Positions 15,824 to 60,380 of a DNA stretch of 64,000 nucleotides are shown one piece after another. The translations under genes and the position numbers were made by a program. Under the pieces are notes generated by a model that worked only from the letters and a program-made list of their open reading frames with translations, was not told the origin of the DNA and made no database searches. The stretch's first letter is position 1; every line of letters begins with the position of its first letter. This DNA comes from Escherichia coli (lineage in GTDB: Bacteria; Pseudomonadota; Gammaproteobacteria; Enterobacterales; Enterobacteriaceae), in NCBI RefSeq assembly GCF_036507355.1, contig NZ_AP027877.1; one strand, 5' to 3'.

Positions 15824-16768
15824 ATGAGTCCTGATAATATCGGTTCGGCTGTCAATCGCTTCTCAGGTTGGCCATCTAATGATTCTCTAAAAACAGATAA
15901 AGAATCAATGACATCACCCGTGACTGTGCAGGTAATAAAGATGATTGCCGCCATCCTTGACCCACATCGGATAGTCGTTGGAATCGATACACTTTATACA
16001 ACGCAGCGCGAAACATTTACCTCAGAGAGTCAACAGCTCATTGAATCAGCATTGCAAACACTTCATGTGATGAATTTAAATAATCTGGAAACAAATCGCG
16101 ATGAAGAAGGTCACTATCTGGCTTTTGAATATAACGTTGACACCTCTGACAGAATAACCGTTTCTGCTTATAATGAAAAAAAGCCTGGCTGCTATGGCCA
16201 ATGTCTTGTAATACAGGATGACGAAACAGACTTATTTAACCTGATAAAAATTAAAATTTTCGAAGCCAGGCATAATTATGTCGCTCAATTGATGAGCGAT
16301 CCGGAATTTATGTTCAAATTCAGTTATAGCGCTCAACAAAATAGATTAGAACCTCATCTTCTGGTTCCCGCTTATTTCCCTCTAAAAACAAACGAACCGG
16401 TTACGCAAGAGGATGTACTGTTACTTTATCGTTTCTTTAAAATGAATGATGATTTTAATAAATTAACATCAGATGAATACATGAGTATCCTGACACCTCT
16501 GATGAAGTGTGAGCGTAGCGTCCACGACAACAACAGGTATGTGACGGGCAAAGATACCCTTCTTCTGGACTATCCTCCTTCTGGTAACCAGATACATTTC
16601 CATGTTTTCCCTGACGAATCAGCAACACTAGTCCTTTATTTTTCAAACAATGACCTTGAATGTTTCGTCTTTGAAAGAGATATTCCTAGCCAGTATCGCT
16701 TTTTCAAAATGTTTACCAATCTGGCACTGGTTATAGATCAGTTAACCGAAGCCAATAAAATACTTTAA
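15824..16768 (+). CDS. hypothetical protein (314 aa), AT-rich island ORF of unknown function
   Basis: long ORF in AT-rich DNA at the edge of the island; no family recognised by eye; not part of the K-12 backbone as I recall it. Confidence 0.55.
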   Translation: MSPDNIGSAVNRFSGWPSNDSLKTDKESMTSPVTVQVIKMIAAILDPHRIVVGIDTLYTTQRETFTSESQQLIESALQTLHVMNLNNLETNRDEEGHYLAFEYNVDTSDRITVSAYNEKKPGCYGQCLVIQDDETDLFNLIKIKIFEARHNYVAQLMSDPEFMFKFSYSAQQNRLEPHLLVPAYFPLKTNEPVTQEDVLLLYRFFKMNDDFNKLTSDEYMSILTPLMKCERSVHDNNRYVTGKDTLLLDYPPSGNQIHFHVFPDESATLVLYFSNNDLECFVFERDIPSQYRFFKMFTNLALVIDQLTEANKIL

Positions 16769-16848: not shown

Positions 16849-17271
16849 ATGATACCATCTCAGATCTCTTTCAATACCCTTCCAGTCAATGCAACATACG
16901 CTTCAGAGACAACAGTTGACACACAAAAATTCTCTGACATCCTCTACTCAGCGGGGTGTTCCCTAAAGGATATGGCTTATCTGAGCAGATGTCTGGCATC
17001 AATACACCCGACTATCGCCAAAAACATTTATGAAACAGAAAATCTCAGCGATCAAAAATTACTGCATATTGATTGCCGTAGTACAAATGAAATCAAGATA
17101 AATATCTTTTTTGGTCAGCAAAGAGAAGGGTTAATTGAAATTAGTTCTGACACAGTTATTTTTTCGATACTGTCTTCATTGATTGACTCCGCCATTTCTA
17201 AATTTCAACACCAAAACCCGGTTAACGGTTTAGTTAATCCTGAAATATTGTATGAGGATTATACTGATTAA
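16849..17271 (+). CDS. hypothetical protein (140 aa), small acidic protein of unknown function
   Basis: co-oriented 80 bp downstream of the 314-aa ORF, same AT-rich composition. Confidence 0.5.
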   Translation: MIPSQISFNTLPVNATYASETTVDTQKFSDILYSAGCSLKDMAYLSRCLASIHPTIAKNIYETENLSDQKLLHIDCRSTNEIKINIFFGQQREGLIEISSDTVIFSILSSLIDSAISKFQHQNPVNGLVNPEILYEDYTD

Positions 17272-17818: not shown

Positions 17819-18268
17819 ATGAAGAAAGCAACACTTGTGATTGGCGTTATTGGCGCGGACTGCCATGCAGTAGGCAATAAAGTTCTGGACCGCGTTTTTA
17901 GCAACCACGACTTCAGAGTCATTAATCTGGGCGTAATGGTCAGCCAGGACGAATATATTGATGCTGCCATTGAAACTGGCGCTGACGCGATTGTCGTCTC
18001 CTCTATCTATGGGCATGGCGATATCGACTGTCTGGGCATGCGCGAACGCTGCATCGAGCGTGGACTGGGGGACATCCTGCTCTATGTGGGCGGTAACCTG
18101 GTGGTCGGAAAACATGACTTCGCTGACGTGGAAACCAAATTCAAAGAGATGGGATTTGATCGCGTCTTTGCCCCAAGTCATGACTTAGAAGATGTTTGTC
18201 AGCTGATGGCCCACGATATCAACCAACGTCATGACATTGATACTCGTATTCTTGAAGAGGCTATCTGA
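17819..18268 (+). CDS. glmS: glutamate mutase sigma (S) subunit, B12-binding (methylaspartate mutase small subunit)
   Basis: [24 protein letters not shown]... contains the DxHxxG cobalamin-binding motif and resembles Clostridium GlmS/MutS; start set at the Met preceded by aaaggatt. Confidence 0.88.
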
Positions 18269-19656
18269 TGCAAATCGTCTCTGTCGATATTGGATCGACG
18301 TGGACCAAAGCAGCCCTCTTCACCCGGGAGGGGGACGCGTTAACGTTGGTTAACCACGTACTGACCCCAACCACCACCCATCATCTGGCGAAGGGGTTTT
18401 TCTCCAGCCTGAACCAAGTGTTAAACGTAGATAATGCCCTCCCCCTGTTAAACAGCGGTGAGGTTGCATTGAAGTATTCCTCCTCTGCCAAAGGTGGGCT
18501 GGCGGTTGCCGCAATGGGATTGGTGCCTTCTATCACCCTGGAAACCGCGAAAGTAACCGCTCACTCTGCGGGTGCTAAAATTGCGCAATATTACGCCTAC
18601 AAGCTGAACCGCCGTGATATCCAGGCACTGGAAGAAACGCAGCCCGATATTCTCTTGTTCACCGGCGGCACCGACGGCGGAGAAGAAAGCTACGGACTGA
18701 ATAACGCCCGTGTGCTGGCAGAATCCAAACTCGACTGCGCCATTATTTATGCCGGAAACCGGGATATTCAGGACGAGGTGCAGGAGCTCCTCGGGCATAA
18801 AGACCTGACCATCGTCGACAATGTTCTGCCCGATCTTGACCATCCGAACCCTTTAGCCGCACGCCAGGCTATTTGCGACATATTCCTTAAACGCATCGTT
18901 AAAGGGAAAGGGCTGGATGTCATTGTTGATAAAACAGGCGAAGAACCAATGCCGACACCATGGACGGTCTTTGAACTGGTCAAGGCAATCAGTAACGTCG
19001 ATCACAGCTGGAAAGAGTTCATGCTGATCGACATGGGCGGCGCAACCACCGATGTTTATTCCGTCTGTGCCAACACGCTCTCGCCCGACACCGTTTTACA
19101 CGGCGTACCGGAACCCTTCGTAAAACGGACGGTGGAAGGCGATCTGGGAATGCGCGTCTCGGCAGTGGTGGTTGGTGAAAGTGCGAAAGAGTTAGTCAAT
19201 GTGAATTTTGCTCAGCAACCCGCACAGCTGGACGCTTTTTATCATTACCTCCGTCATCTAGTCGCTCATCCCGACTACTTACCCGCAAATGCAGAAGAGA
19301 AATATTTCGATACCGTCCTGGCCGGACTGTGTGTGGGTTATGCCACCGAAAGACATGCGGGCACCAAAAAAGAGGTCTGCACCTGCGTCGGCAATGTCGA
19401 TTTACAGATGGGACGTGACCTGACAACCGTGCGTAAAGTCGTCGGATCCGGCGGATGGCTCTCGCGTGCCAGTCAGTTCGATATGCATCACTGGTTGAAA
19501 TACCGCGAGTTAAACGACGACGGTAAACGCATTCTCTTACCGACCGAATTTGAATATTACCGCGATTCCCGGGGGCTATTACCACTGCTGGCAAACGTCG
19601 CCAGAGTCGATCCGCTGGCCGCCGCGCGCACCAGTATTCAATGCTTAACCCTATAA
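18268..19656 (+). CDS. glmL: glutamate mutase accessory protein GlmL/MutL (actin-fold ATPase)
   Basis: 462-aa ORF between the S and E subunit genes as in clostridial mutS-mutL-mutE operons. Confidence 0.8.
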   Translation: MQIVSVDIGSTWTKAALFTREGDALTLVNHVLTPTTTHHLAKGFFSSLNQVLNVDNALPLLNSGEVALKYSSSAKGGLAVAAMGLVPSITLETAKVTAHSAGAKIAQYYAYKLNRRDIQALEETQPDILLFTGGTDGGEESYGLNNARVLAESKLDCAIIYAGNRDIQDEVQELLGHKDLTIVDNVLPDLDHPNPLAARQAICDIFLKRIVKGKGLDVIVDKTGEEPMPTPWTVFELVKAISNVDHSWKEFMLIDMGGATTDVYSVCANTLSPDTVLHGVPEPFVKRTVEGDLGMRVSAVVVGESAKELVNVNFAQQPAQLDAFYHYLRHLVAHPDYLPANAEEKYFDTVLAGLCVGYATERHAGTKKEVCTCVGNVDLQMGRDLTTVRKVVGSGGWLSRASQFDMHHWLKYRELNDDGKRILLPTEFEYYRDSRGLLPLLANVARVDPLAAARTSIQCLTL

Positions 19657-19674: not shown

Positions 19675-21120
19675 ATGGAACTTCGAAATAAGAAATTAAC
19701 CCATGACGAATTCATGACCGAGCGGCAACAGGTACTGAAAACCTGGGAAACCGGCAAGGATGTTGAAAACTTTGAAGATGGCGTTAAATACCAACAAACC
19801 ATCCCTGAGCATAAACGCTTCTCTCTTGCGCTGCTGAAAGCAGACAAGGAAGGTAAAACCCTTAGCCAACCGCGCGCAGGTGTGGCGCTGATGGACGAAC
19901 ACATCGAACTGCTGAAAACACTACAAGAAGAGTGCGATCTGCTGCCAAGCACCATCGATGCATATACCCGTCTGAATCGGTACGAAGAAGCGGCTGTAGG
20001 GATTAAAAAATCCATCGAAGCCGGAACCTCTAAACTGAACGGTTTACCGGTAGTTAACCATGGTGTCGCAGCTTGCCGTCGCCTCACCGAAACCCTGCAA
20101 AAACCGCTACAGATCCGCCACGGCACGCCAGATGCGCGTCTGCTGGCTGAAATCTCAATGGCCAGCGGCTTTACCAGTTATGAAGGCGGTGGCATTTCCT
20201 ACAACATTCCGTATGCCAAACGCGTAACGCTGGAAAAATCGATCCGCGACTGGCAGTACTGCGACCGTTTAATGGGGATGTATGAAGAACACGGGATCCG
20301 CATCAACCGCGAACCGTTTGGCCCACTAACGGGTACGCTGATCCCGCCGTTTATCTCGCATTCTATCGCGATAATCGAAGGCTTGCTGGCACTGGAACAG
20401 GGTGTGAAATCTATCACCGTTGGTTATGGCCAGGTCGGCAGCCTGACGCAGGATGTTGCGGCGATCCAGTCTCTGCGTGAACTTGCACACGAATATTTTC
20501 AGAGCTATGGCTATACCGACTATGAATTGAGTACCGTGTTTCACCAGTGGATGGGCGGCTTTCCGGAAGACGAATCGAAAGCGTTCGCTATTATCTCCTG
20601 GGGTGCAGCCGTCGCGGGGATGTCTGGTGCCACCAAAGTCATCACCAAAAGTCCGCACGAAGCCTGGGGTATCCCGACTGCCGCTGCCAACATTCAGGGG
20701 CTGAAAGCCTCCCGCCAGATGCTCAACATGGTCAATGAGCAGAAATTCCCGCCGTGCCCTGCGGTTGAACTGGAAATTGAACTGATTAAGAGCGAGGTTC
20801 GCGCTGTACTGAATAAAGTGTTCGAACTGGGTAATGGTGATATTGCGCGCGGTACGGTGCTGGCATTTGAAGCGGGCGTACTGGATGTGCCATTTGCGCC
20901 AGCCGCCTGCAACGCGGGCAATATTCTTCCGGTCCGTGACAACACCGGCGCGATACGCGTACTGGAAGCCGGAGCCGTTCCATTGCCAAAAGATATTCTC
21001 GATCTCCACCACGATTACGTTGCGGAACGCGCACGCTTTGAAGGACGCCAACCGACATTCCAGATGGTTGTAGATGACATCAATGCTGTATCCCACAGTA
21101 AATTAATAGGAAGACCATAA
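19675..21120 (+). CDS. glmE: glutamate mutase epsilon (E) catalytic subunit
   Basis: 481-aa ORF MELRNKKLTHDEFMTERQQVL... with extended similarity to clostridial GlmE (QPRAGVALMDEHIELL, PSTIDAYTR, GGGISYNIPYAK, REPFGPLTGTL, FQMVVDD). Confidence 0.9.
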   Translation: MELRNKKLTHDEFMTERQQVLKTWETGKDVENFEDGVKYQQTIPEHKRFSLALLKADKEGKTLSQPRAGVALMDEHIELLKTLQEECDLLPSTIDAYTRLNRYEEAAVGIKKSIEAGTSKLNGLPVVNHGVAACRRLTETLQKPLQIRHGTPDARLLAEISMASGFTSYEGGGISYNIPYAKRVTLEKSIRDWQYCDRLMGMYEEHGIRINREPFGPLTGTLIPPFISHSIAIIEGLLALEQGVKSITVGYGQVGSLTQDVAAIQSLRELAHEYFQSYGYTDYELSTVFHQWMGGFPEDESKAFAIISWGAAVAGMSGATKVITKSPHEAWGIPTAAANIQGLKASRQMLNMVNEQKFPPCPAVELEIELIKSEVRAVLNKVFELGNGDIARGTVLAFEAGVLDVPFAPAACNAGNILPVRDNTGAIRVLEAGAVPLPKDILDLHHDYVAERARFEGRQPTFQMVVDDINAVSHSKLIGRP

Positions 21121-22361
21121 TGAAAATAAAACAGGCTCTGTTCACCGCTGGCTACTCCTCATTCTATTTCGATGACCAGCAGGCGATAAAAAACGGAGCG
21201 GGTCATGACGGCTTTTTTTATACCGGGGAGCCGGTAACACAGGGGTTTAACGCCGTTCGTCAGGCCGGGGAGTGCGTATCGGTACAGTTGATTCTGGAAA
21301 ACGGCGCGGTCGCTGTAGGTGACTGTGCTGCCGTACAGTATTCCGGGGCAGGTGGTCGCGACCCACTGTTCCTCGCAGAGCTCTTTATTCCGTTCCTCAA
21401 CGACCATATCAAGCCATTACTGGTAGGCCGCGATGTGGATGCTTTCCTGCCGAATGCCCGTTTCTTCGACAAATTGCGTATTGACGGCAACTTGCTGCAT
21501 ACCGCCGTGCGCTACGGATTATCACAGGCGCTGCTTGATGCTACCGCGCTGGCAACCGGCCGTCTGAAAACTGAAGTGGTCTGTGATGAATGGCAGTTGC
21601 CACGCGTGGCGGAATCCATTCCATTATTTGGTCAGAGCGGCGACGATCGATATATCGCCGTCGATAAGATGATCCTTAAGGGCATCGACGTGCTGCCCCA
21701 TGCGCTGATTAATAACGTCGAAGAGAAGCTGGGCTTTAAAGGTGAAAAACTGCGCGAATATGTCCGCTGGTTGTCGGATCGCATTCTAAGCAAGCGCACC
21801 AGCGCACGCTACCACCCAACCTTGCACATCGATGTATACGGCACTATCGGTCTGATCTTCGATATGGATCCGCTTCGCTGTGCGCAATACATCGCCAGCC
21901 TGGAAAAAGAAGCGCAAGGCCTGCCGCTCTACATTGAAGGGCCGGTCGATGCCGGTAACAAGCCCGATCAAATTCGCCTGCTGACCGCGATTACCAAAGA
22001 GCTGACGCGCCTCGGTTCCGGCGTGAAAATTGTGGCCGATGAATGGTGTAACACCTACCAGGATGTTGTTGATTTCACTGATGCCGCCAGTTGTCACATG
22101 GTGCAAATCAAAACCCCGGATCTGGGCAGTATTCACAACATCGTCGATGCGGTTCTTTACTGCAACAGCCACAGCATGGAAGCGTACCAGGGCGGCACCT
22201 GCAATGAAACTGATGTCAGTGCCCGCACCTGTGTCCACGTCGCCCTTGCCGCTCGCCCTATGCGTATGCTGGTAAAGCCAGGGATGGGCTTTGACGAAGG
22301 CCTCGATATCGTCTTCAACGAAATGAATCGTACTATCGCGCTGTTGCAGGCTAAGGATTAA
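21120..22361 (+). CDS. mal: 3-methylaspartate ammonia-lyase
   Basis: 413-aa ORF; motifs GDCAAVQYSGAGGRDPLF, PHALINNVEEKLG, HMVQIKTPDLG match clostridial methylaspartase (enolase superfamily). Confidence 0.9.
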   Translation: MKIKQALFTAGYSSFYFDDQQAIKNGAGHDGFFYTGEPVTQGFNAVRQAGECVSVQLILENGAVAVGDCAAVQYSGAGGRDPLFLAELFIPFLNDHIKPLLVGRDVDAFLPNARFFDKLRIDGNLLHTAVRYGLSQALLDATALATGRLKTEVVCDEWQLPRVAESIPLFGQSGDDRYIAVDKMILKGIDVLPHALINNVEEKLGFKGEKLREYVRWLSDRILSKRTSARYHPTLHIDVYGTIGLIFDMDPLRCAQYIASLEKEAQGLPLYIEGPVDAGNKPDQIRLLTAITKELTRLGSGVKIVADEWCNTYQDVVDFTDAASCHMVQIKTPDLGSIHNIVDAVLYCNSHSMEAYQGGTCNETDVSARTCVHVALAARPMRMLVKPGMGFDEGLDIVFNEMNRTIALLQAKD

Positions 22362-22364
22362 CAA

Positions 22365-22565
22365 ATGGCTCGTTCTTTTAAAGTCTTATCGCCAACAGCA
22401 ATCCTCGGGTATGGATTCCCGGAAGAGAGCTTCCGCAAAGCGATGGCAGAATCACCCGATCTGATCGCCGTTGATGCAGGCTCTTCCGATCCAGGCCCCC
22501 ACTACCTCGGGCAGGCAAACCGTTTACCGATCGCGCAGGGGTCAAGCGCGATCTGCGCTATATGA
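22365..22565 (+). CDS. N-terminal segment of a DUF1446 (AtuA-like) protein, separated from the main ORF by a frame change
   Basis: 66-aa ORF ending in ATGA overlap with the next ORF; the next ORF's frame is open upstream to 22475, so the two likely form one gene. Confidence 0.45.
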   Translation: MARSFKVLSPTAILGYGFPEESFRKAMAESPDLIAVDAGSSDPGPHYLGQANRLPIAQGSSAICAI

Positions 22566-23734
22566 TCACCGCAGGCGTGCAAAATAATATACCGGTGGTG
22601 ATCGGAACGGCCGGCGGTTCTGGTGCCGCTCCACACCTGGAGTGGTGCCGAGAAATAATTCATGAGATTGCCCAGGAAGAGCACCTCTCGTTCTCGATGG
22701 CGTTGATCCCGGCAGACGTTGACAAAGCCATCGTCCACCAGGCGCTGGATAACGGCAAAATCACGGCGCTGGATTTTGTCCCGCCGTTAACCCACGACGC
22801 GATTGACGAAAGTACGTATATCGTCGCGCAAATGGGCATCGAACCCTTCCAGCGGGCGCTAAAAGAAGGCGCGCAAGTGGTGCTGGGTGGGCGCGCTTAC
22901 GACCCGGCCTGCTTTGCTGCGCTACCGATCATGCAAGGCTTTGATGAAGGTCTGGCGCTGCATTGTGGGAAAATCCTTGAATGCGCGGCAATCGCCGCAA
23001 CGCCCGGCTCAGGCTCTGACTGTGCGATGGGCATCATTGATGACAACGGCTTTACGCTGAAGACATTTAATCCGAAGCGTAAATTTACCGAAACGTCAGC
23101 AGCTGCACACACACTGTATGAGAAATCCGATCCCTACTTCCTGCCAGGACCTGGCGGCGTGTTGAACCTGAAAGGCTGCACATTTAAAGCAGTCAATGAC
23201 GGCGAAGTCTACGTCAGCGGTTCTAAGCATGAAGAAACGCCGTATGCCCTGAAACTGGAAGGTGCACGACGGGTGGGCTTCCGCTGTCTGACCATCGCCG
23301 GAACGCGCGACCCGATTATGATCGCCGGGATCGATAAACTCATCGATGAAGTCAAAACCAGCGTTTCGCGTAACCTGTCGCTCGACGATGACAGCATTCG
23401 CATCAATTTCCACCTGTACGGCAAAAACGGGGTGATGGGAGACCATGAACCGATGCAAACTGCCGGGCATGAGCTGGGGATTGTTCTTGATGTAGTTGCA
23501 CCGACCCAGGAAATTGCCAATAGCGTTTGCTCGCTGGTGCGCTCTACCATGCTGCACTACGGCTATGAAAACCGCATCGCTACCGCAGGTAATCTGGCGT
23601 TCCCGTTCTCCCCTTCTGATATCCAGGGCGGGCCGGTATACGAATTTTCCATATATCACCTGATTGAAGCCAACGACGCTCTGCGTTTTGATTTCCATAT
23701 TGAACAGGTGACGCCAGAAGGAGTTCAGGCATGA
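22562..23734 (+). CDS. DUF1446 (AtuA-like) family protein, main part
   Basis: 390-aa ORF; combined with the upstream 66-aa ORF gives about 456 aa, the usual DUF1446 size; followed by its usual small DUF4387 partner. Confidence 0.65.
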   Translation: MITAGVQNNIPVVIGTAGGSGAAPHLEWCREIIHEIAQEEHLSFSMALIPADVDKAIVHQALDNGKITALDFVPPLTHDAIDESTYIVAQMGIEPFQRALKEGAQVVLGGRAYDPACFAALPIMQGFDEGLALHCGKILECAAIAATPGSGSDCAMGIIDDNGFTLKTFNPKRKFTETSAAAHTLYEKSDPYFLPGPGGVLNLKGCTFKAVNDGEVYVSGSKHEETPYALKLEGARRVGFRCLTIAGTRDPIMIAGIDKLIDEVKTSVSRNLSLDDDSIRINFHLYGKNGVMGDHEPMQTAGHELGIVLDVVAPTQEIANSVCSLVRSTMLHYGYENRIATAGNLAFPFSPSDIQGGPVYEFSIYHLIEANDALRFDFHIEQVTPEGVQA

Positions 23735-24048
23735 AACAGTCAATTGTCTCACTGGCGCAAGTCATTCGTTCGAAAAATGCCGGACCTTACGAACTGGTTT
23801 TAGATATTTTATTTAAAACGAAAGAAAACTATGAGCGAGTTAAATCATCAGGGCAATTAACCCCAGAACTGATTGCGCGCTTATATCATGTTGAACCTGA
23901 CTTTATTCATCGTATTGTCTGGTTTGATCCTTCTAACGCAGTAAAAATCGTCATGCCACGAGATATTATCTCCGGGAATGTAGGTGACAATGATGTCTAT
24001 GGTGCACAGCAACATGCACCTTTATTAAATATGAGTTTCGATTTGTAA
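23731..24048 (+). CDS. DUF4387 family small protein (partner of DUF1446/AtuA-like proteins)
   Basis: 105-aa ORF translationally coupled (ATGA overlap) to the DUF1446 ORF. Confidence 0.6.
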   Translation: MKQSIVSLAQVIRSKNAGPYELVLDILFKTKENYERVKSSGQLTPELIARLYHVEPDFIHRIVWFDPSNAVKIVMPRDIISGNVGDNDVYGAQQHAPLLNMSFDL

Positions 24049-24131
24049 AAATCCGAATACTTTTAGCCAACTGACATCCCGTCACTTATTGCAGTTCAAC
24101 ACTTCAGCTATTTGTAAGGTTGTAATAGCAG

Positions 24132-24163
24132 GTAGATGCCTGAATCTCTATTCAGGCATCTAC
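24132..24163 (+). terminator. strong stem-loop between the DUF4387 gene and the transporter gene (terminator or attenuator)
   Basis: perfect 14-bp inverted repeat gtagatgcctgaat/attcaggcatctac with 4-nt loop, followed by a T-rich stretch. Confidence 0.4.
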
Positions 24164-24208
24164 TTCTCCTGATTCTGATTTATCGCCGTGCACCTGATGG
24201 AGGAAAAA

Positions 24209-25489
24209 ATGAAGAAAATAAGTTTAACCACGATGATTCTTTTGGCGCTGGTACTTGGAATGATTATCGGCGTAGTGCTCAATAACACTGCTTCACCGGA
24301 AACAGCAAAACTCTATGCGCAAGAAATATCGATATTCACGACGATTTTCTTACGACTGATAAAAATGATTATCGCTCCGTTAGTGGTCTCTACCCTGGTG
24401 GTAGGTATTGCTAAAATGGGCGATGCCAAAGCCCTTGGTCGTATTTTTTCTAAAACACTCTTTTTATTTATTTGCGCCTCATTGCTGTCAATTGCCTTAG
24501 GCTTGATAACGGTAAATTTCTTCATGCCAGGCACAGGAATTAATTTTGTTGCACACGGTGCCGAAACCACAGGAGTGGTCGCGTCAGAACCCTTTACGCT
24601 AAAAGTATTTATTTCGCATGCTTTCCCCACCAGCATTGTCGATGCCATGGCGCACAATGAAATTTTGCAAATCGTGGTGTTCTCAATTTTCCTCGGCTGT
24701 AGCCTGACGGCGATTGGCGAGAAAGGCAGCGCCATCGTTCACGCCTTAGATTCGCTGGCACATGCCATGTTAAAGCTCACTGGCTACGTCATGCTCTTCG
24801 CTCCCCTGACCGTATTCGCCGCTATTTCAGCATTGATTGCTGAACGAGGACTGGCAGTTATGGTGAGCGCCGGGATCTTTATGGGTGAATTTTATTTCAC
24901 CATGTTATTACTTTGGGTGCTGCTTATCGGTCTGGCCATCGTTTATGTCGGCCCCTGCATCAGACGCCTGACCCGCGCCCTTTCGGAACCCGCCCTGCTG
25001 GCATTTACCACATCCAGTTCTGAAGCGGCTTTTCCGGGAACGCTTGAAAAACTGGAGCAATTTGGCGTTTCCCCCAAAATTGCCAGCTTTGTCTTACCCA
25101 TTGGCTACTCATTTAATCTCGTTGGATCAATGGCCTACTGCTCCTTCGCCACAGTTTTCATCGCCCAGGCCTGCAATATCCATTTATCCATCGGTGAGCA
25201 AATCACCATGCTGTTGATCCTGATGTTGACCTCGAAAGGAATGGCTGGCGTACCACGCGCCTCAATGGTGGTTATCGCCGCCACGCTCAACCAGTTCAAT
25301 ATTCCGGAAGCGGGGCTGATCTTGCTGATGGGCGTTGATCCGTTCCTTGATATGGGGCGTTCCGCGACAAACGTCATGAGCAACGCAATGGGCGCTGCGA
25401 TGGTGAGTCGGTGGGAAGGCGAACATTTCGGCGAGGGCTGTCGGGGTAAAGCATTAAAACCCAATGAATCGAACGTTGCTCTGCCCTGA
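24209..25489 (+). CDS. dicarboxylate/amino acid:cation symporter (DAACS family; glutamate/aspartate or C4-dicarboxylate transporter)
   Basis: polytopic membrane ORF with DAACS-like N-terminus; start chosen at MKKISL preceded by a GGAGGA ribosome-binding site (ORF track starts 21 nt earlier at 24188). Confidence 0.8.
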   Translation: MKKISLTTMILLALVLGMIIGVVLNNTASPETAKLYAQEISIFTTIFLRLIKMIIAPLVVSTLVVGIAKMGDAKALGRIFSKTLFLFICASLLSIALGLITVNFFMPGTGINFVAHGAETTGVVASEPFTLKVFISHAFPTSIVDAMAHNEILQIVVFSIFLGCSLTAIGEKGSAIVHALDSLAHAMLKLTGYVMLFAPLTVFAAISALIAERGLAVMVSAGIFMGEFYFTMLLLWVLLIGLAIVYVGPCIRRLTRALSEPALLAFTTSSSEAAFPGTLEKLEQFGVSPKIASFVLPIGYSFNLVGSMAYCSFATVFIAQACNIHLSIGEQITMLLILMLTSKGMAGVPRASMVVIAATLNQFNIPEAGLILLMGVDPFLDMGRSATNVMSNAMGAAMVSRWEGEHFGEGCRGKALKPNESNVALP

Positions 25490-25596: not shown

Positions 25597-27249
25597 ATGT
25601 CCAAACCATTTATCTGGCAAGAACCGTTTCTACAAAATAAAGACGGTACAGAATATACATTAATTAGCGATCAACATATTACAGTAACGGAATTAGACGG
25701 CGAAGAAGTGATAAAAATCGCTCCTGAAGCATTAACGCTGCTTGCCCGGCAGGCATTTTATGAAGCCTCTTTTTTCTTACGTTCCGCTCATTTGCAACAG
25801 GTCGCCAGCATTCTTAACGATCAGCAGGCCAGCAGTAATGATAAATACGTTGCGTTGCAGTTATTACGTAATGCTGAAGTCTCAGCAAAAGGGGTATTAC
25901 CCAACTGTCAGGATACCGGCACCGCAACTATTGTTGCCAGTAAAGGGCAACAGATATGGACCGGAAGTAACGACGCCGAAGCTTTAAGTAAAGGCATTTA
26001 CAGTACTTTCCAGGAAAATAATCTGCGCTTTTCACAAAATGCGCCGCTGGATATGTATACCGAAGTCAATACGCAAACCAATCTCCCGGCGCAGATTGAT
26101 ATCAGCGCTGTCGCTGGTGATGAGTACCATTTTCTCTGTGTTAATAAAGGGGGCGGCTCCGCCAATAAAGCCGCGCTTTATCAGGAAACCAAATCCTTAT
26201 TGCAACCAGAAAAACTGACCGCATTTTTAATCGAAAAAATGAAATCGCTGGGCACCGCTGCCTGCCCGCCTTACCACATCGCCTTTGCCGTCGGAGGGCT
26301 TTCAGCCGATCAAACCTTAAAAGTTGCCAAGCTGGCCTCAACGAAATATTACGACAATTTGCCCACCAGCGGAAACGAGCAGGGACAAGCATTCCGTGAT
26401 ATTGAGCTGGAAAAAGCGTTGCTCGAGGCCAGTCAGCAATTTGGTATTGGTGCACAATTTGGGGGGAAATATTTCGCTCATGATATTCGCGTCATTCGTC
26501 TGCCGCGTCACGGTGGCTCTTGCCCGATAGCTATGGCGCTCTCCTGTTCTGCCGATCGCAATATCAAAGCAAAAATTAACAAACACGGTATCTGGCTAGA
26601 AAAACTCGAACACAATCCGGGGCAATATATTCCAGCCTCATTGCGGGAAGAAAATCACGCGCAACATGTACAACTGGATCTAAACCGTCCGTTGCGTGAC
26701 GTGATGCTGGATCTCGCCAGATTACCGGTAGGTACCCGCGTGTCGTTAAGTGGTCCCATCGTAGTGGCGCGCGATATCGCCCACGCCAAAATAAAAGCGC
26801 GGCTGGATAGCGGCGAATCGATGCCGGAGTACCTGAAGCATCATATTGTCTATTACGCTGGCCCGGCGAAAACACCGGAGAACATGGCCTGCGGTTCACT
26901 GGGTCCAACCACGGGCGGTCGAATGGATGGTTATGTCGATACCTTCCAGGCGGCCGGCGGCAGTCTGGTGATGTTATCGAAAGGTAACCGCAGCCAGCAG
27001 GTCACCGATGCCTGTCACAAACATGGCGGCTTCAATCTGGGAAGTATTGGCGGTGCAGCTGCGTTACTGGCGCAAGAATATGTCAAAAGTCTGCGTTGCC
27101 TGGAATACCCGGAGCTGGGTATGGAAGCGGTGTGGATGATGGAAGTGGAAAATCTGCCCGCATTCATCCTGGTAGATGATAAAGGCAATAATTTCTTTAG
27201 TCAGTTTGAGCAGCAACACCGCTGCGCCAGTTGCCCTGCGGGACATTAA
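25597..27249 (+). CDS. fumD: class I (Fe-S) fumarate hydratase homologue, mesaconase/fumarase FumD type
   Basis: 550-aa ORF collinear with E. coli FumA ([40 protein letters not shown]); clustered with glutamate mutase and methylaspartase as described for fumD. Confidence 0.85.
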
Positions 27250-27864: not shown

Positions 27865-27897
27865 CTGCGCCTGGCATCCCGCCAGGCGCAGGTTTTA
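27865..27897. terminator. bidirectional intrinsic terminator between the adenosyltransferase gene and the convergent LysR gene
   Basis: ctgcgcctggc-atcc-gccaggcgcag hairpin followed by gtttta. Confidence 0.6.
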
Positions 27898-28557
27898 CAT
27901 CTCCTGCGGTACGACCGATTTCGCCAGCAACCATTCACGAAATTGCTGCAAGTGCGGTGAGTCAGACTTCTCTTCCTGCCACGTCATAATAAAACGATTA
28001 CCGGTACGAATAGGCACATCACAGGGAATCACCATATCGCCACTATCCAAATCATGTTGAATAGCGAAACGTGGTAACAGCGCCACGCCGAGATTAGAGC
28101 GCACGGCGGCAATCAGCATTGAAAGCAAATCGAAACGTGGTCCGTTATTGACCAACGGACTGCTAACGCCAGATAAAGCAAACCACTCTTCCCAGCCAGT
28201 AATACGGGTGCTTTGATGCAGAAGCGGTAACTCAGTAAGCAGTTCTGCCACTGACAGCTTTTGATCGGACATTGCAAGCAAACTGCCGCTGCATACCGGC
28301 AAAATCTCCTCATCAAAGAGATATTCTACTTCCGCCCAGGGCGCGCAAAAATTTTCGCGCATAATGACAGCATCGTACTCCCGATTAAGAAAATCGCCGT
28401 TATTAGCTAAAGAATGAATATTAACAATAATATCGGGATGTAACTTTGTGAATTCATGTAAATTTGGGATCAACCAGTGGGTACTAAAAGTAGGATTAAC
28501 GGCAAGTTCAATAACCTGAACCGTAGGCTGCCAGGTCATAATGGTATTGGTATCGCG
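27895..28557 (-). pseudogene. LysR-family transcriptional regulator, C-terminal effector-domain portion (gene interrupted by IS1)
   Basis: 214-aa ORF from an internal Met; reading frame continues upstream (RDTNTI) to the IS1 junction. Confidence 0.8.
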
Positions 28558-28612
28558 GGTGATGCTGCCAACTTACTGATTTAGTGTATGATGGTGTTTT
28601 TGAGGTGCTCCA

Positions 28613-28888
28613 GTGGCTTCTGTTTCTATCAGCTGTCCCTCCTGTTCAGCTACTGACGGGGTGGTGCGTAACGGCAAAAGCACCGCCGGACATCAGCGCT
28701 ATCTCTGCTCTCACTGCCGTAAAACATGGCAACTGCAGTTCACTTACACCGCTTCTCAACCCGGTACGCACCAGAAAATCATTGATATGGCCATGAATGG
28801 CGTTGGATGCCGGGCAACAGCCCGCATTATGGGCGTTGGCCTCAACACGATTTTACGTCACTTAAAAAACTCAGGCCGCAGTCGGTAA
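28613..28888 (+). CDS. insA: IS1 protein InsA
   Basis: 91-aa [46 protein letters not shown]... identical in character to IS1 InsA. Confidence 0.95.
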
Positions 28889-29310
28889 CCTCGCGCATAC
28901 AGCCGGGCAGTGACGTCATCGTCTGCGCGGAAATGGACGAACAGTGGGGCTATGTCGGGGCTAAATCGCGCCAGCGCTGGCTGTTTTACGCGTATGACAG
29001 GCTCCGGAAGACGGTTGTTGCGCACGTATTCGGTGAACGCACGATGGCGACGCTGGGGCGTCTTATGAGCCTGCTGTCACCCTTTGACGTGGTGATATGG
29101 ATGACGGATGGCTGGCCGCTGTATGAATCCCGCCTGAAGGGAAAGCTGCACGTAATCAGCAAGCGATATACGCAGCGAATTGAGCGGCATAACCTGAATC
29201 TGAGGCAGCACCTGGCACGGCTGGGACGGAAGTCGCTGTCGTTCTCAAAATCGGTGGAGCTGCATGACAAAGTCATCGGGCATTATCTGAACATAAAACA
29301 CTATCAATAA
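28807..29310 (+). CDS. insB: IS1 transposase InsB frame (expressed as InsAB' by -1 frameshifting)
   Basis: 167-aa ORF in the -1 frame overlapping the insA 3' end, typical IS1 organisation. Confidence 0.9.
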
Positions 29311-29325
29311 GTTGGAGTCATTACC

Positions 29326-29577
29326 GGTATCGCGTTCCAGCTTATTTAATGTTTCTTTTACTATCCCCAGGTAATACTTCCCAGCATCATTAAGAAAAAT
29401 GCGTTTTTTAGAGTGTGAAAATAACGGAGTACGTAAAAATTCCTCCAGCGCACTTACTTGTCTGAATACTGCACTTTGGGTTAACGCTAACTCCTCTGCC
29501 GCTCTGGTATAACTTTCATGACGTGCGACGACCTCAAAAGTCACCAGCAGTTCCGTTTTAGGTATTTTCCCTCGCAT
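29326..29577 (-). pseudogene. LysR-family transcriptional regulator, N-terminal HTH portion (gene interrupted by IS1)
   Basis: MRGKIPKTELLVTFEVVARHESYTRAAEELALTQSAVFRQVSALEEFLRTPLF... is a LysR-type HTH; the frame runs into IS1 after ...KLERDT. Confidence 0.8.
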
Positions 29578-56904: not shown

Positions 56905-58151
56905 GGTGTTGTTAGCCTTCGGAATTCATCAAGTGATATGGGATGTCCATGTATTGTCCCACCGCTAAGTTCAACTCGAACCCATTGAGATTCTTTACCC
57001 TCACTGGCCCCAATAACTTTCCCCATATCTTTTACTTTCCATGGTTTACCGTTGGTAACAGGTGTGCCTGTATTAAAAACATCGTATTCCAGCGTTTTAA
57101 TATCAATATCGGGAGAATATTTTGCCGGGCCTGATTTTGTTGATTTAATTATATCCTTCCATGATTTGTTTTTTGGAGGAAAATGTTTGTATCCATGATT
57201 TGTCCATTCAGGTTGCCCACACTTTAAACCTAACGGGTCGATCCACCCCAACGGATTCGGCGCGTATTGGTATAAATTTAATCCACCAAGCAGCCCTATC
57301 GGATCCGTTACCATGAACCGCCCGACATCCGGATCATAGTACCTGTGCAGATTGTAGTGCAGCCCCGTTTCCCTGTCGAGGTACTGTCCCTGGTAGCGCA
57401 GGTTCTGCTCCACCCTGCCGTGGTCCTTCTCCTGTATCGTGTTACCCCAGACCTGATACCCCGTCTCCCACACGATTCTCCCGTCGCTGTCCGTCATCTC
57501 TTCCGGCGCACCGTTCACATCCGTGTGAAAATACAGTATCCGGTTCGGGCCCTCTTTGCCTGCCTTATCCACCCGCGCCAGCGGTTCATAACTCCCCGGG
57601 TCCCTGTAGATGTACAGGCTGCCTGTTCCCTCCGGCCTGCTCTCCTGCGCCAGCCGCATTCCGTCCCATAAAAATTTTGTCCGGTTGTACGGTTTACCGT
57701 CAGGGCTGATGTGCTGTTTTTCCGTCCGCCTCCCCAGTGCATCGTACACATACCGGTATGCCCCCCGCGCTGTCGTCACTTCCACCATCCGGTGTTCCGC
57801 ATCATAACGGTAACTCTGCGTTCCGCTCCGGCCCTCCTTTTCCACCGCACGGCCAAATTCGTCATAACGGTAGTGCACACCACGGTAAGACATCAGCCGG
57901 TTGAACGGCACCACGCTGTTTTCTGCCGTGGCCCTTTCCCCCGCGCGCCTCCCCAGCAGGTTTCCCGCCGCGTCGTACTGCCAGCTCGCCAGATACCCCT
58001 CATCCTCCGAACGGCACGCCGTGATGCGCCCCGTGGGGTCGTAGAAGTAATCCGTTTCCCCCCGCCGGCTGTGCCGCGTCTTCAGCAGTTCATCCTCGCC
58101 ACTGTAGCTGTACTGCCGGTCCGTGAACGTCTCCGGTACCACCCCGCGCAT
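56901..58151 (-). CDS. Rhs protein C-terminal part: last YD repeats, DPxGL boundary motif and about 107-aa variable C-terminal toxin domain
   Basis: YD-repeat sequence, then DPIGLLGGLNLYQYAPNPLGWIDPLGL followed by an AT-rich divergent tail; in frame with the upstream Rhs ORF across a single TAG. Confidence 0.85.
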   Translation of the reverse strand: MRGVVPETFTDRQYSYSGEDELLKTRHSRRGETDYFYDPTGRITACRSEDEGYLASWQYDAAGNLLGRRAGERATAENSVVPFNRLMSYRGVHYRYDEFGRAVEKEGRSGTQSYRYDAEHRMVEVTTARGAYRYVYDALGRRTEKQHISPDGKPYNRTKFLWDGMRLAQESRPEGTGSLYIYRDPGSYEPLARVDKAGKEGPNRILYFHTDVNGAPEEMTDSDGRIVWETGYQVWGNTIQEKDHGRVEQNLRYQGQYLDRETGLHYNLHRYYDPDVGRFMVTDPIGLLGGLNLYQYAPNPLGWIDPLGLKCGQPEWTNHGYKHFPPKNKSWKDIIKSTKSGPAKYSPDIDIKTLEYDVFNTGTPVTNGKPWKVKDMGKVIGASEGKESQWVRVELSGGTIHGHPISLDEFRRLTTP

Positions 58152-58220
58152 CCCGCTGTATGTCTCCCTGCGCTTCAGCCGCCCGCCGGGGTCGTAAAGC
58201 TGCCGCGTGCTCAGTCGCCC

Positions 58221-60380
58221 CTAGCTTCTGAGCACCTCACGGTGCAGGTGGTCGCGCGTGAACTCGCTGATGACCTCCCGGTCCAGATTTATCTGCTGGA
58301 GATGGCCGCTGCCGTAGTACAGATGGCGCTGCGTTCTGCCGTCCGGAAAGGTGGTGGCAGTCCGGTTGCCCAGTTCATCGTACTGGTGGGTCAGGATGCC
58401 CTGCGCCGTCTCCTCGCTCAGCATCCGCCCCAGTCTGTCGTAGCTGAAGCAGATAACTTCCGGCGCGTCAGTTTCGTGCCGCTGGCGGCGGATTTCACCG
58501 CCCCGGTCCCCGGTGAACACCACTTCCGTGACCGCGTTCAGCGCGTTGTAGCGGTACGACTGGCGGCAGCCGTCCGGATTTATCTGCTCCGCCAGACGGT
58601 CCAGCACGTCATGGCGGAACCGGTAGCGTTCTCCGTTCTCGTTCGTGAGCGTGACCAGACGCCCGTAAGCGTCGTACCCGAACGCCGTCCTGCGCCCCAT
58701 CGCGTCCGTCCGGCTGCGCACCCGGCCCTGCCCGTCCCGCTGCCAGCGCGTTATCCTCCCCATCGGGCTGGTGTACTTCACCAGACTGCCCGCCGCGTCT
58801 GACTGGTAATTCACCGTGCGGCCGTCCGCCAGTATCACCTCCGTCAGATGACCGCTGTCGTCATACCCGTAGCGCGTGCTGTGGCTCTCCGCATCCGTCA
58901 TTCTGATAAGCCGCGTGCGTTCGTCGTAGAACCACGCCGTCTGCGAGCCGGAGCAGTCCGTGTGCCGCATGAGCTGCCCGTCTTCATTCCACTGGAGGTG
59001 TTTATTCCCCCCGCGCGCATCCGTTATCTGCACCACCTGGCCGTGGTGGTCATACTGATACCGGGTGTTCTGCTGCAGCGGGTCGGTCACGGCAAGAAGG
59101 TTGCCGCGTTCATCGTACACACAGCGCCAGGTGTTTCCCGCCGCGTCCACCTCCGTTTCCGGCTGGTGCCACACCGGGTGCCACTGTGTCTGCGCCACCC
59201 GCCCCAGCGGGTCGTGCGTCTCCGTGATATGCCCCTGCCGGTCATACACATAGCGCCATTTGCCGCCCTGAGGGTCGGTCATCCCCAGCAACAGTCGTTC
59301 TTCGTCGCTCCAGCGGAATGTCGTCACCTGTCCGGCTTCGTCCTGGTACGCCGTCACCTGATTCTGCGCATCCCACTGGTGATAACGTGTGCGCCCCAGT
59401 CCGTCCGTCACGCACAGCCTGCGCTGCGCCAGGTCCCACGCCAGCCGGTACTGTTCACCGCTGTCCGTGTGGTGCCCCGTCACCCGCCATGCCGCGTCAT
59501 CCGGACCGTCATACCAGCCCCACTGGTAATAATACCCTTCGCCGCCCGGCTGGCGGTGCAGCGTCATGCAGTGGTTTTCGTCGTAAGCAAACTCACGCAG
59601 CAGGTGCCCCGTGCTGTCGTACACGCCGTTCAGGTGGCCGGCCTCGTCATAGCTGTAACGACGCAGCAGTAAAGGTGCAGTCTCAGGGAAATGCTGATAA
59701 ATCTGTGTCACCCGCCGGGGATGCGCCGCCAGTTCGTAATACAGACGGATGCACGGACGCTGCTGTTCGCCGCTGATTTCCACAATGCGGCCCCGGTCGT
59801 CGTAGTACAGATTCAGACAGTTGCTGTTACGGTCGCCCAGCATTTTCAGCCGCTGGCGCTGCGGGTGGTGCGGGTCGCCTTCAAACAACCAGTGGATACC
59901 ATCATCGCTGCTGATAAGCCAGTGCCCCTGCTCACCACGCCTTACCGCCAGCCCTTCACCGGGGCTGTAAAACCCGCCCCCCGGCAGTACGGCTTCCATA
60001 TCCAGGCGTCGCCCCATACCCGACACAAAGGTCATGCAGTTTTCGTCTGCGCCACCCGGCAATACAAATGCCACCTGACACTGGTACACCTGCTCGTTAT
60101 CACGGAGAAACTGGCTCTGTATTTCCAGCCCTTGTTCACCGTCATTAATCCCTACCCGTGTTACCTGAACTGGCGTGTAGTGAAGATCCTTTACCTGTTT
60201 CTCCAGTTTTTTCATTTGCTGTTCAATCTGGGAGGCTAATTCGTCTCCTTCCTGCATCTGGCCCCGACTGATAATGAGTGCAGCGTCGGGATCGCTGAGG
60301 CGCAGCATATTAATAGTGCTGTCCTGAATAATATTCCCGGGAAAAGTTACAACAGTTTCATTGAGATAATACTCCGTCAT
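58221..60380 (-). CDS. Rhs repeat protein, N-terminal and core part (terminated by an in-frame amber codon)
   Basis: 719-aa GC-rich ORF with many YD/RHS repeats; collinear with the K-12 RhsC core but with a different first ~110 aa; AGGA ribosome-binding site upstream of the ATG. Confidence 0.85.
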   Translation of the reverse strand: MTEYYLNETVVTFPGNIIQDSTINMLRLSDPDAALIISRGQMQEGDELASQIEQQMKKLEKQVKDLHYTPVQVTRVGINDGEQGLEIQSQFLRDNEQVYQCQVAFVLPGGADENCMTFVSGMGRRLDMEAVLPGGGFYSPGEGLAVRRGEQGHWLISSDDGIHWLFEGDPHHPQRQRLKMLGDRNSNCLNLYYDDRGRIVEISGEQQRPCIRLYYELAAHPRRVTQIYQHFPETAPLLLRRYSYDEAGHLNGVYDSTGHLLREFAYDENHCMTLHRQPGGEGYYYQWGWYDGPDDAAWRVTGHHTDSGEQYRLAWDLAQRRLCVTDGLGRTRYHQWDAQNQVTAYQDEAGQVTTFRWSDEERLLLGMTDPQGGKWRYVYDRQGHITETHDPLGRVAQTQWHPVWHQPETEVDAAGNTWRCVYDERGNLLAVTDPLQQNTRYQYDHHGQVVQITDARGGNKHLQWNEDGQLMRHTDCSGSQTAWFYDERTRLIRMTDAESHSTRYGYDDSGHLTEVILADGRTVNYQSDAAGSLVKYTSPMGRITRWQRDGQGRVRSRTDAMGRRTAFGYDAYGRLVTLTNENGERYRFRHDVLDRLAEQINPDGCRQSYRYNALNAVTEVVFTGDRGGEIRRQRHETDAPEVICFSYDRLGRMLSEETAQGILTHQYDELGNRTATTFPDGRTQRHLYYGSGHLQQINLDREVISEFTRDHLHREVLRS

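Follow-up and report, generated by a model that had tools for sequence, protein, structure and literature searches.

Organisation of the locus

The window, by which we mean the whole 64-kb stretch of DNA analysed here, is at best ~99% identical to complete E. coli genomes. Between cydAB and sucDC, an insertion site read from the window and from the O157:H7 annotation, it carries an island whose genes follow the order glmS-glmL-glmE-mal-[DUF1446/DUF4387 pair]-transporter-fumD-cobO-LysR, as given by the listing of open reading frames (ORFs) and by the RefSeq annotation of the orthologous O157:H7 locus. The features of the island are the following:

17819-18268, + strand: glmS, glutamate (methylaspartate) mutase subunit S (ORF, O157 RefSeq annotation)
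18268-19656, + strand: glmL, accessory protein GlmL (ORF, O157 RefSeq annotation)
19675-21120, + strand: glmE, glutamate (methylaspartate) mutase subunit E (ORF, O157 RefSeq annotation)
21120-22361, + strand: mal, methylaspartate ammonia-lyase, directly upstream of cmlA (ORF, O157 annotation)
22365-23734, + strand: cmlA, AtuA/DUF1446 family, very probably the citramalate lyase large subunit, a pseudogene here (split ORFs, Pfam AtuA, match to 9ERQ_A)
22506-22511, + strand: site of the cmlA deletion, GGGG to GGG (alignment with two intact E. coli alleles, indel list)
22562-23734, + strand: residual cmlA ORF of 390 aa, starting at the native Met66 (ORF listing)
23731-24048, + strand: cmlB, DUF4387, very probably the citramalate lyase small subunit, intact, 105 aa (match to 9erq_B, Pfam DUF4387)
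24130-24165, + strand: hairpin in the cmlB-transporter intergenic region, 14-16 bp stem, 4-nt loop (folding)
24209-25489, + strand: dicarboxylate/amino acid:cation symporter, GltP-like (ORF, O157 annotation)
25597-27249, + strand: fumD, class I fumarase/mesaconase, mesaconate to (S)-citramalate (ORF, O157 annotation; biochemistry in PMC4682846)
27259-27861, + strand: cobO, cob(I)yrinic acid a,c-diamide adenosyltransferase (ORF, O157 annotation)
27895-29577, - strand: divergent LysR-family regulator gene, split by IS1 (O157 comparison, profile matches)
28558-29325, + strand: IS1 insertion, 768 bp (9-bp target duplication GGTATCGCG; insA and insB match NF033558)

The ORFs and the O157 annotation thus place the DUF1446/DUF4387 pair where an earlier note on this DNA, made from the sequence alone, had put it, between the ammonia-lyase gene mal and the transporter and fumD genes. 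The AtuA/DUF1446 reading frame is opened by an ATG at 22365, 3 nt past the mal stop codon. The claim that the two genes of the pair are translationally coupled agrees with their junction, in which the DUF4387 ATG overlaps the DUF1446 TGA as ATGA and is preceded by an AAGGAG Shine-Dalgarno sequence.

Three further features of the window were recorded. The hairpin at 24130-24165 is built on a perfect 14-bp inverted repeat (-25.6 kcal/mol, z-score -4.84) and may be a candidate partial terminator or mRNA-stabilising hairpin between two transcription units. Between cydA and glmS, a low-GC stretch (~37%) holds two + strand ORFs, 15824-16768 (314 aa) and 16849-17271 (140 aa), which are hypothetical in the O157 annotation; neither gave a match with NCBIfam or PADLOC, and Pfam returned nothing significant for the 314-aa ORF. 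Finally, a GC peak of 0.64 at ~58000-60000 coincides with an RHS repeat-associated core gene in the annotation of the best-matching E. coli genomes.

The pair is very probably citramalate lyase CmlAB

Kronen and Berg left it open what becomes of citramalate in enterobacteria with the glutamate mutase island; they pointed to DUF1446 downstream of mal, both in Enterobacteriaceae and in Dictyoglomus, reported that citrate lyase, isocitrate lyase and methylisocitrate lyase give no citramalate lyase activity, and found no conditions under which the O157 cluster was expressed (2015, PMC4682846). The earlier note had seen no gene for citramalate lyase or citramalyl-CoA lyase in the window, and a tblastn search with E. 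coli CitC, CitD, CitE, CitF, CitG and CitX, which found no match in the 64 kb, bears this out.

Profile HMM searches with Pfam assigned the large subunit to AtuA (PF07287, E 1.5e-17, residues 63-394) and the small subunit to DUF4387 (PF14330, E 2.9e-39). A PDB sequence search was more telling. The intact O157 protein aligns end to end with residues 1-456 of chain 9erq_A (E 1.3e-291), whose molecule name is "Citramalate lyase, subunit A (cmlA)", and the DUF4387 protein of the window matches 9erq_B (E 5.2e-57), named "Citramalate lyase, subunit B (cmlB)". With one missing G restored, the cmlA of the window encodes a 456-aa protein with 92.3% identity to 9ERQ_A, and its CmlB is 84.6% identical to 9ERQ_B. 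The entry 9ERQ, released 2025-10-22, is titled "Citramalate lyase - AMPPNP - citramalate complex", and 9EVF, released 2025-10-08, "Citramalate lyase - ADP - pyruvate complex". The locus thus combines a large subunit orthologous over its full length to 9ERQ chain A, a DUF4387 small subunit orthologous to chain B immediately downstream, and an operon context of glutamate mutase, methylaspartase and class I fumarase/mesaconase.

Function has been approached with the cmlAB genes of Raoultella planticola, which gave mesaconate- and Cml-dependent growth and acetyl-CoA labelling in E. coli; Acs was upregulated, which was linked to the acetate produced by Cml, and the products were taken to be pyruvate and free acetate, formed by a direct, CoA-independent cleavage (bioRxiv 10.64898/2026.01.16.699985). 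This preprint and the 2015 study come from the same laboratory.

We consider it very probable that the ORF pair represents the E. coli-lineage orthologues of cmlA and cmlB, coding for a CoA- and ACP-free citramalate lyase that completes the methylaspartate pathway of the island, and that the copy found here is frameshifted. The reaction itself, (S)-citramalate to pyruvate and acetate, is supported by the names given by the PDB depositors, by the titles and ligands of the entries and by the one preprint, and the activity of the E. coli-lineage CmlAB is predicted from orthology. The full-length match to the citramalate lyase chains and the Raoultella preprint uphold the proposal of the earlier note that the pair is a candidate for the step after citramalate, and its description of the pair as having no assigned function has been overtaken by the PDB entries of October 2025, which name the genes cmlA/cmlB. 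Since the function of CmlAB has been public from that date, nothing in this assignment is new as a discovery. Annotation stands to gain from it: against the PDB name citramalate lyase, the labels "AtuA family" and "DUF4387" that RefSeq and Pfam give to the pair are outdated, as is the label methylaspartate ammonia-lyase that some records give to the large subunit, and NCBIfam holds no model that matches either CmlA or CmlB. CmlA orthologues were found under the name "acyclic terpene utilization AtuA family protein" or, wrongly, "3-methylaspartate ammonia-lyase" (P0002, P0060 and P0072).

Gene neighbourhood and distribution

The gene-neighbourhood survey that the earlier note had called for was run on one genome per GTDB species, using tblastn with the island proteins, and covered 80 loci with CmlA relatives of at least 56% identity. 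These loci belong to Enterobacterales, Riflebacteria, Aminicenantes/Acidobacteriota, Lentisphaerae, Spirochaetales, Chloroflexi, Bacillota and others. The co-location that had been described as conserved is indeed so: of the 80 species loci, 75 have mal immediately upstream of cmlA and 77 have cmlB immediately downstream, 71 contain glmE and 52 contain a class I fumarase. Among the loci without one of these partners, several are truncated contigs. The same operon recurs on independent metagenome contigs, from Riflebacteria and other phyla. CitD, CitE and CitF were found by tblastn in no mal-linked locus of the survey. More distant relatives, at ~40-44% identity, are always paired with DUF4387 but occur in unrelated contexts; the tie to glutamate fermentation is confined to the orthologous clade of at least 56% identity. 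Within the species, 1,125 of the 5,426 complete E. coli genomes (~21%) carry the pair, and with it a complete glutamate fermentation pathway that goes unannotated because the RefSeq, Pfam and NCBIfam labels lag behind.

Several loci depart from this arrangement. In Accumulibacter (L037), Desulfospira (L069), Haliea (L085) and Shewanella surugensis (L088), close cmlAB orthologues (56-68% identity) stand away from glm and mal, and citramalate may have a different origin there; the Haliea locus has a CitE-like gene ~9 kb upstream. One metagenome contig (L010:3286-8492) carries three tandem AtuA/DUF4387 pairs, none of them linked to mal, with genes for an acyl-CoA synthetase and a family III CoA-transferase alongside; the family seems to have branched out to several substrates. 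In 46 non-enterobacterial glm-mal-cmlAB loci, cmlB is followed by a gene for a conserved protein of ~300-335 aa, hereafter protein X (for example L004:10698-11654, L003:10712-11665 and L006:10677-11618; alignment A4). Protein X, which is absent from Enterobacterales, has the conserved motifs HSDVKH and CTGxRTH and gave no Pfam, NCBIfam or PDB sequence match; its AlphaFold model resembles a P-loop ATPase of the TsaE type with a fused AlaX/ThrRS-editing-like domain.

Two other identities for the pair were weighed against these data. A role in terpene (Atu) degradation, with an incidental link to the island, would follow from the Pfam and RefSeq label of the large subunit, acyclic terpene utilization AtuA family, and from the scattered contexts of its distant relatives; it is nevertheless very improbable, given that the clade is linked to mal in nearly all its species and that a close orthologue has crystal structures in complex with citramalate and with pyruvate. 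The annotation lists no atu genes near the orthologous O157 locus, and on this ground the terpene role was rejected. That the large ORF encodes a second methylaspartate ammonia-lyase has a basis in the source name of the homologues P0002, P0060 and P0072, a labelling already noted by Kronen and Berg (PMC4682846), and yet its likelihood is close to nil. Pfam detects AtuA only in the large ORF, with neither MAAL_N nor MAAL_C; these domains of the enolase superfamily, from which the CmlA fold differs, belong to the gene upstream of cmlA, the true mal, and the second methylaspartase was rejected accordingly. We thus retain the assignment of the pair to CmlAB.

A probable frameshift in cmlA and an IS1 insertion in the regulator gene

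Where the earlier note had spoken of one DUF1446 ORF, a 1-nt deletion leaves cmlA here as two ORFs in different frames, 22365-22565 (66 aa) and 22562-23734 (390 aa), so that the window holds no intact large-subunit ORF. Alignment with two intact E. coli alleles shows that one G is missing from a GGGG run at window position ~22508 (L001 position 12210); the native frame is kept over codons 1-48 and is followed by a -1 frameshift. Because it restarts at the native Met66, the 390-aa residual ORF lacks the invariant DAGSSDPGP motif (D42, G44, P45) and the nearly invariant D63. The copy of cmlA in the window is, judged from its sequence, probably inactive.

The LysR gene, intact in O157:H7 (906 bp), is interrupted by an IS1 (768 bp, with the 9-bp target duplication GGTATCGCG) that parts the HTH from the effector-binding domain. 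On the minus strand, the C-terminal remnant of 213 aa occupies 27895-28539 and matches only profile positions ~94-292 of LysR-type models, while the N-terminal HTH fragment occupies 29326-29577; insA and insB of the element match the IS1 family transposase model NF033558. Owing to the cmlA frameshift and the split LysR regulator gene, the citramalate step has most likely been lost in this genome, and expression of the island probably as well. Together the two lesions indicate that loss of the pathway is under way in this genome.

The deletion could also be an assembly or sequencing error, in which case the gene pair would be intact and functional in the real organism. It sits in a homopolymer run; the 45-mer of cmlA that bears it occurs in 0 of the 5,426 complete E. 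coli genomes, as against 812 of 5,426 for the intact 46-mer used as a control; and the island ORFs other than cmlA are full length, the remainder of the island being collinear with O157 at 99.2% identity. On the other side, only three single-base indels separate the window from O157 across 15.5 kb, and the two besides that of cmlA both fall outside called ORFs, so indel error is not pervasive; moreover, a bona fide IS1 with its target duplication in the regulator gene of the same island fits a locus already decaying, and argues that the decay is genuine. We regard such an error as unlikely, if deserving of real weight, and favour a true frameshift in cmlA.

Pathway and proposed mechanism

In the pathway as we reconstruct it, glutamate would be converted to methylaspartate by GlmS/GlmE, with GlmL and CobO as helpers; Mal would then yield mesaconate, FumD would convert this to (S)-citramalate, and CmlAB would cleave citramalate to pyruvate and acetate. 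Since the PDB entries hold both chains, CmlAB is a heteromer of the 456-aa and 105-aa subunits. Alignment of the large subunit revealed residues conserved across the family (D42, G44, G87, R177, D180, H200, K203, E206 and C207). In DUF4387, R13, K15, N16, D25, K72, R77 and D88 are invariant and Q93, Q94 and H95 nearly so, and CmlB bears the conserved motifs RSKNAGP and YGAQQHAPL. Other members carry DUF4387 at the C-terminal end of AtuA within one fused protein, as at residues 503-604 of P0146. Because of these invariant residues and this fusion, DUF4387 is probably part of the active site, to which it would supply conserved charged residues, and not a regulator.

According to the entry titles, CmlAB was crystallised with citramalate and AMPPNP and with pyruvate and ADP, which suggests a probable catalytic part for the bound adenine nucleotide. 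In a retro-aldol cleavage between C2 and C3 of citramalate, a carboxylate would accept electrons poorly, and the most likely course is that CmlAB uses ATP to turn the C4 carboxylate into a short-lived acyl phosphate. This phosphorylation would enable the retro-aldol cleavage without the thioester, bound to an acyl carrier protein, on which the classical lyases rely. Free acetate would appear once the phosphoryl group had gone back to ADP or been released. A parallel is offered by ATP-citrate lyase, in which ATP activates the carboxylate (citryl phosphate) ahead of a C-C cleavage for which a thioester would otherwise be required.

The nucleotide could instead be allosteric or structural, which counts against this scheme. 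Cleavage would then be a nucleotide-independent, metal-assisted retro-aldol reaction through an aci-carboxylate intermediate, of the isocitrate lyase/dimethylmalate lyase type; in favour of such a route, the preprint gives a direct CoA-independent cleavage to pyruvate and free acetate with the ATP cost unmentioned (bioRxiv 10.64898/2026.01.16.699985). We rate the metal-assisted route as unlikely but worth keeping in mind. A broader proposal is put forward tentatively, with somewhat less than even confidence: the nucleotide would be a catalytic co-substrate, the reaction would pass through a citramalyl-phosphate intermediate, CmlAB would be the founding member of an ATP-assisted, acetate-releasing class of C-C lyases that extends across the AtuA/DUF4387 superfamily (2,381 representative clusters, without exception paired or fused), and protein X would be an accessory factor. 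If true, this class would take in multi-copy loci, L010 among them, as well as the proposed AtuA step in terpene degradation. The depositors of 9ERQ/9EVF may already have established part of the ATP-assisted mechanism.

Comparison with known systems

The likeness of CmlAB to ATP-citrate lyase is a mechanistic analogy only, as the latter has an unrelated fold, requires CoA and releases acetyl-CoA. Another route from citramalate to pyruvate and a C2 unit combines succinyl-CoA:citramalate CoA-transferase with the CitE/HpcH-like (S)-citramalyl-CoA lyase (PMC4682846); unlike CmlAB it is CoA-dependent and gives acetyl-CoA, and tblastn detected no CitE-like gene in the window or in any mal-linked locus.

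The AtuA of the Atu pathway is nearer in sequence, belonging like CmlAB to the Pfam family PF07287 with DUF4387, and its proposed chemistry is alike, with acetate lost from a 3-hydroxy-3-alkyl acid by C-C cleavage, although one review assigns this step (a proposed HIHG-CoA:acetate lyase) to LiuE. By analogy, acetate-eliminating chemistry may be common to the whole AtuA family. AtuA differs from CmlA in being a fused protein of ~600-615 aa, encoded in an atu operon and proposed to act on a CoA ester, and the two share ~35-40% identity; at the present locus there are two separate genes instead of a fused AtuA-DUF4387 in an atuABCDEFGH cluster.

Closest of all are the CmlAB of 9ERQ/9EVF and that of Raoultella planticola, which have the same architecture of 456 aa and 105 aa as the pair in the window, and the operon context of CmlAB in Enterobacterales is that of the window as well; the differences are the frameshift in cmlA and the IS1 element within the regulator gene here. 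The classical citramalate lyase (EC 4.1.3.22) of Clostridium tetanomorphum, which is homologous to CitDEF, catalyses the same net reaction as CmlAB and holds the same place in the methylaspartate pathway, in clusters with glm and mal genes; such clostridial citDEF clusters were documented by Kronen and Berg in 2015 (PMC4682846). The two enzymes have no sequence or fold relationship, and CmlAB thus represents a non-orthologous replacement: the pair in the window has neither CitDEF-type homology nor accessory citC, citX and citG genes, and CmlAB differs from the CitDEF type in binding a nucleotide and in operating without an acyl carrier subunit, without citC/citX/citG and without thioester chemistry. 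The gap left in 2015 is thereby filled by CmlAB, an enzyme with no relation to the classical complex.
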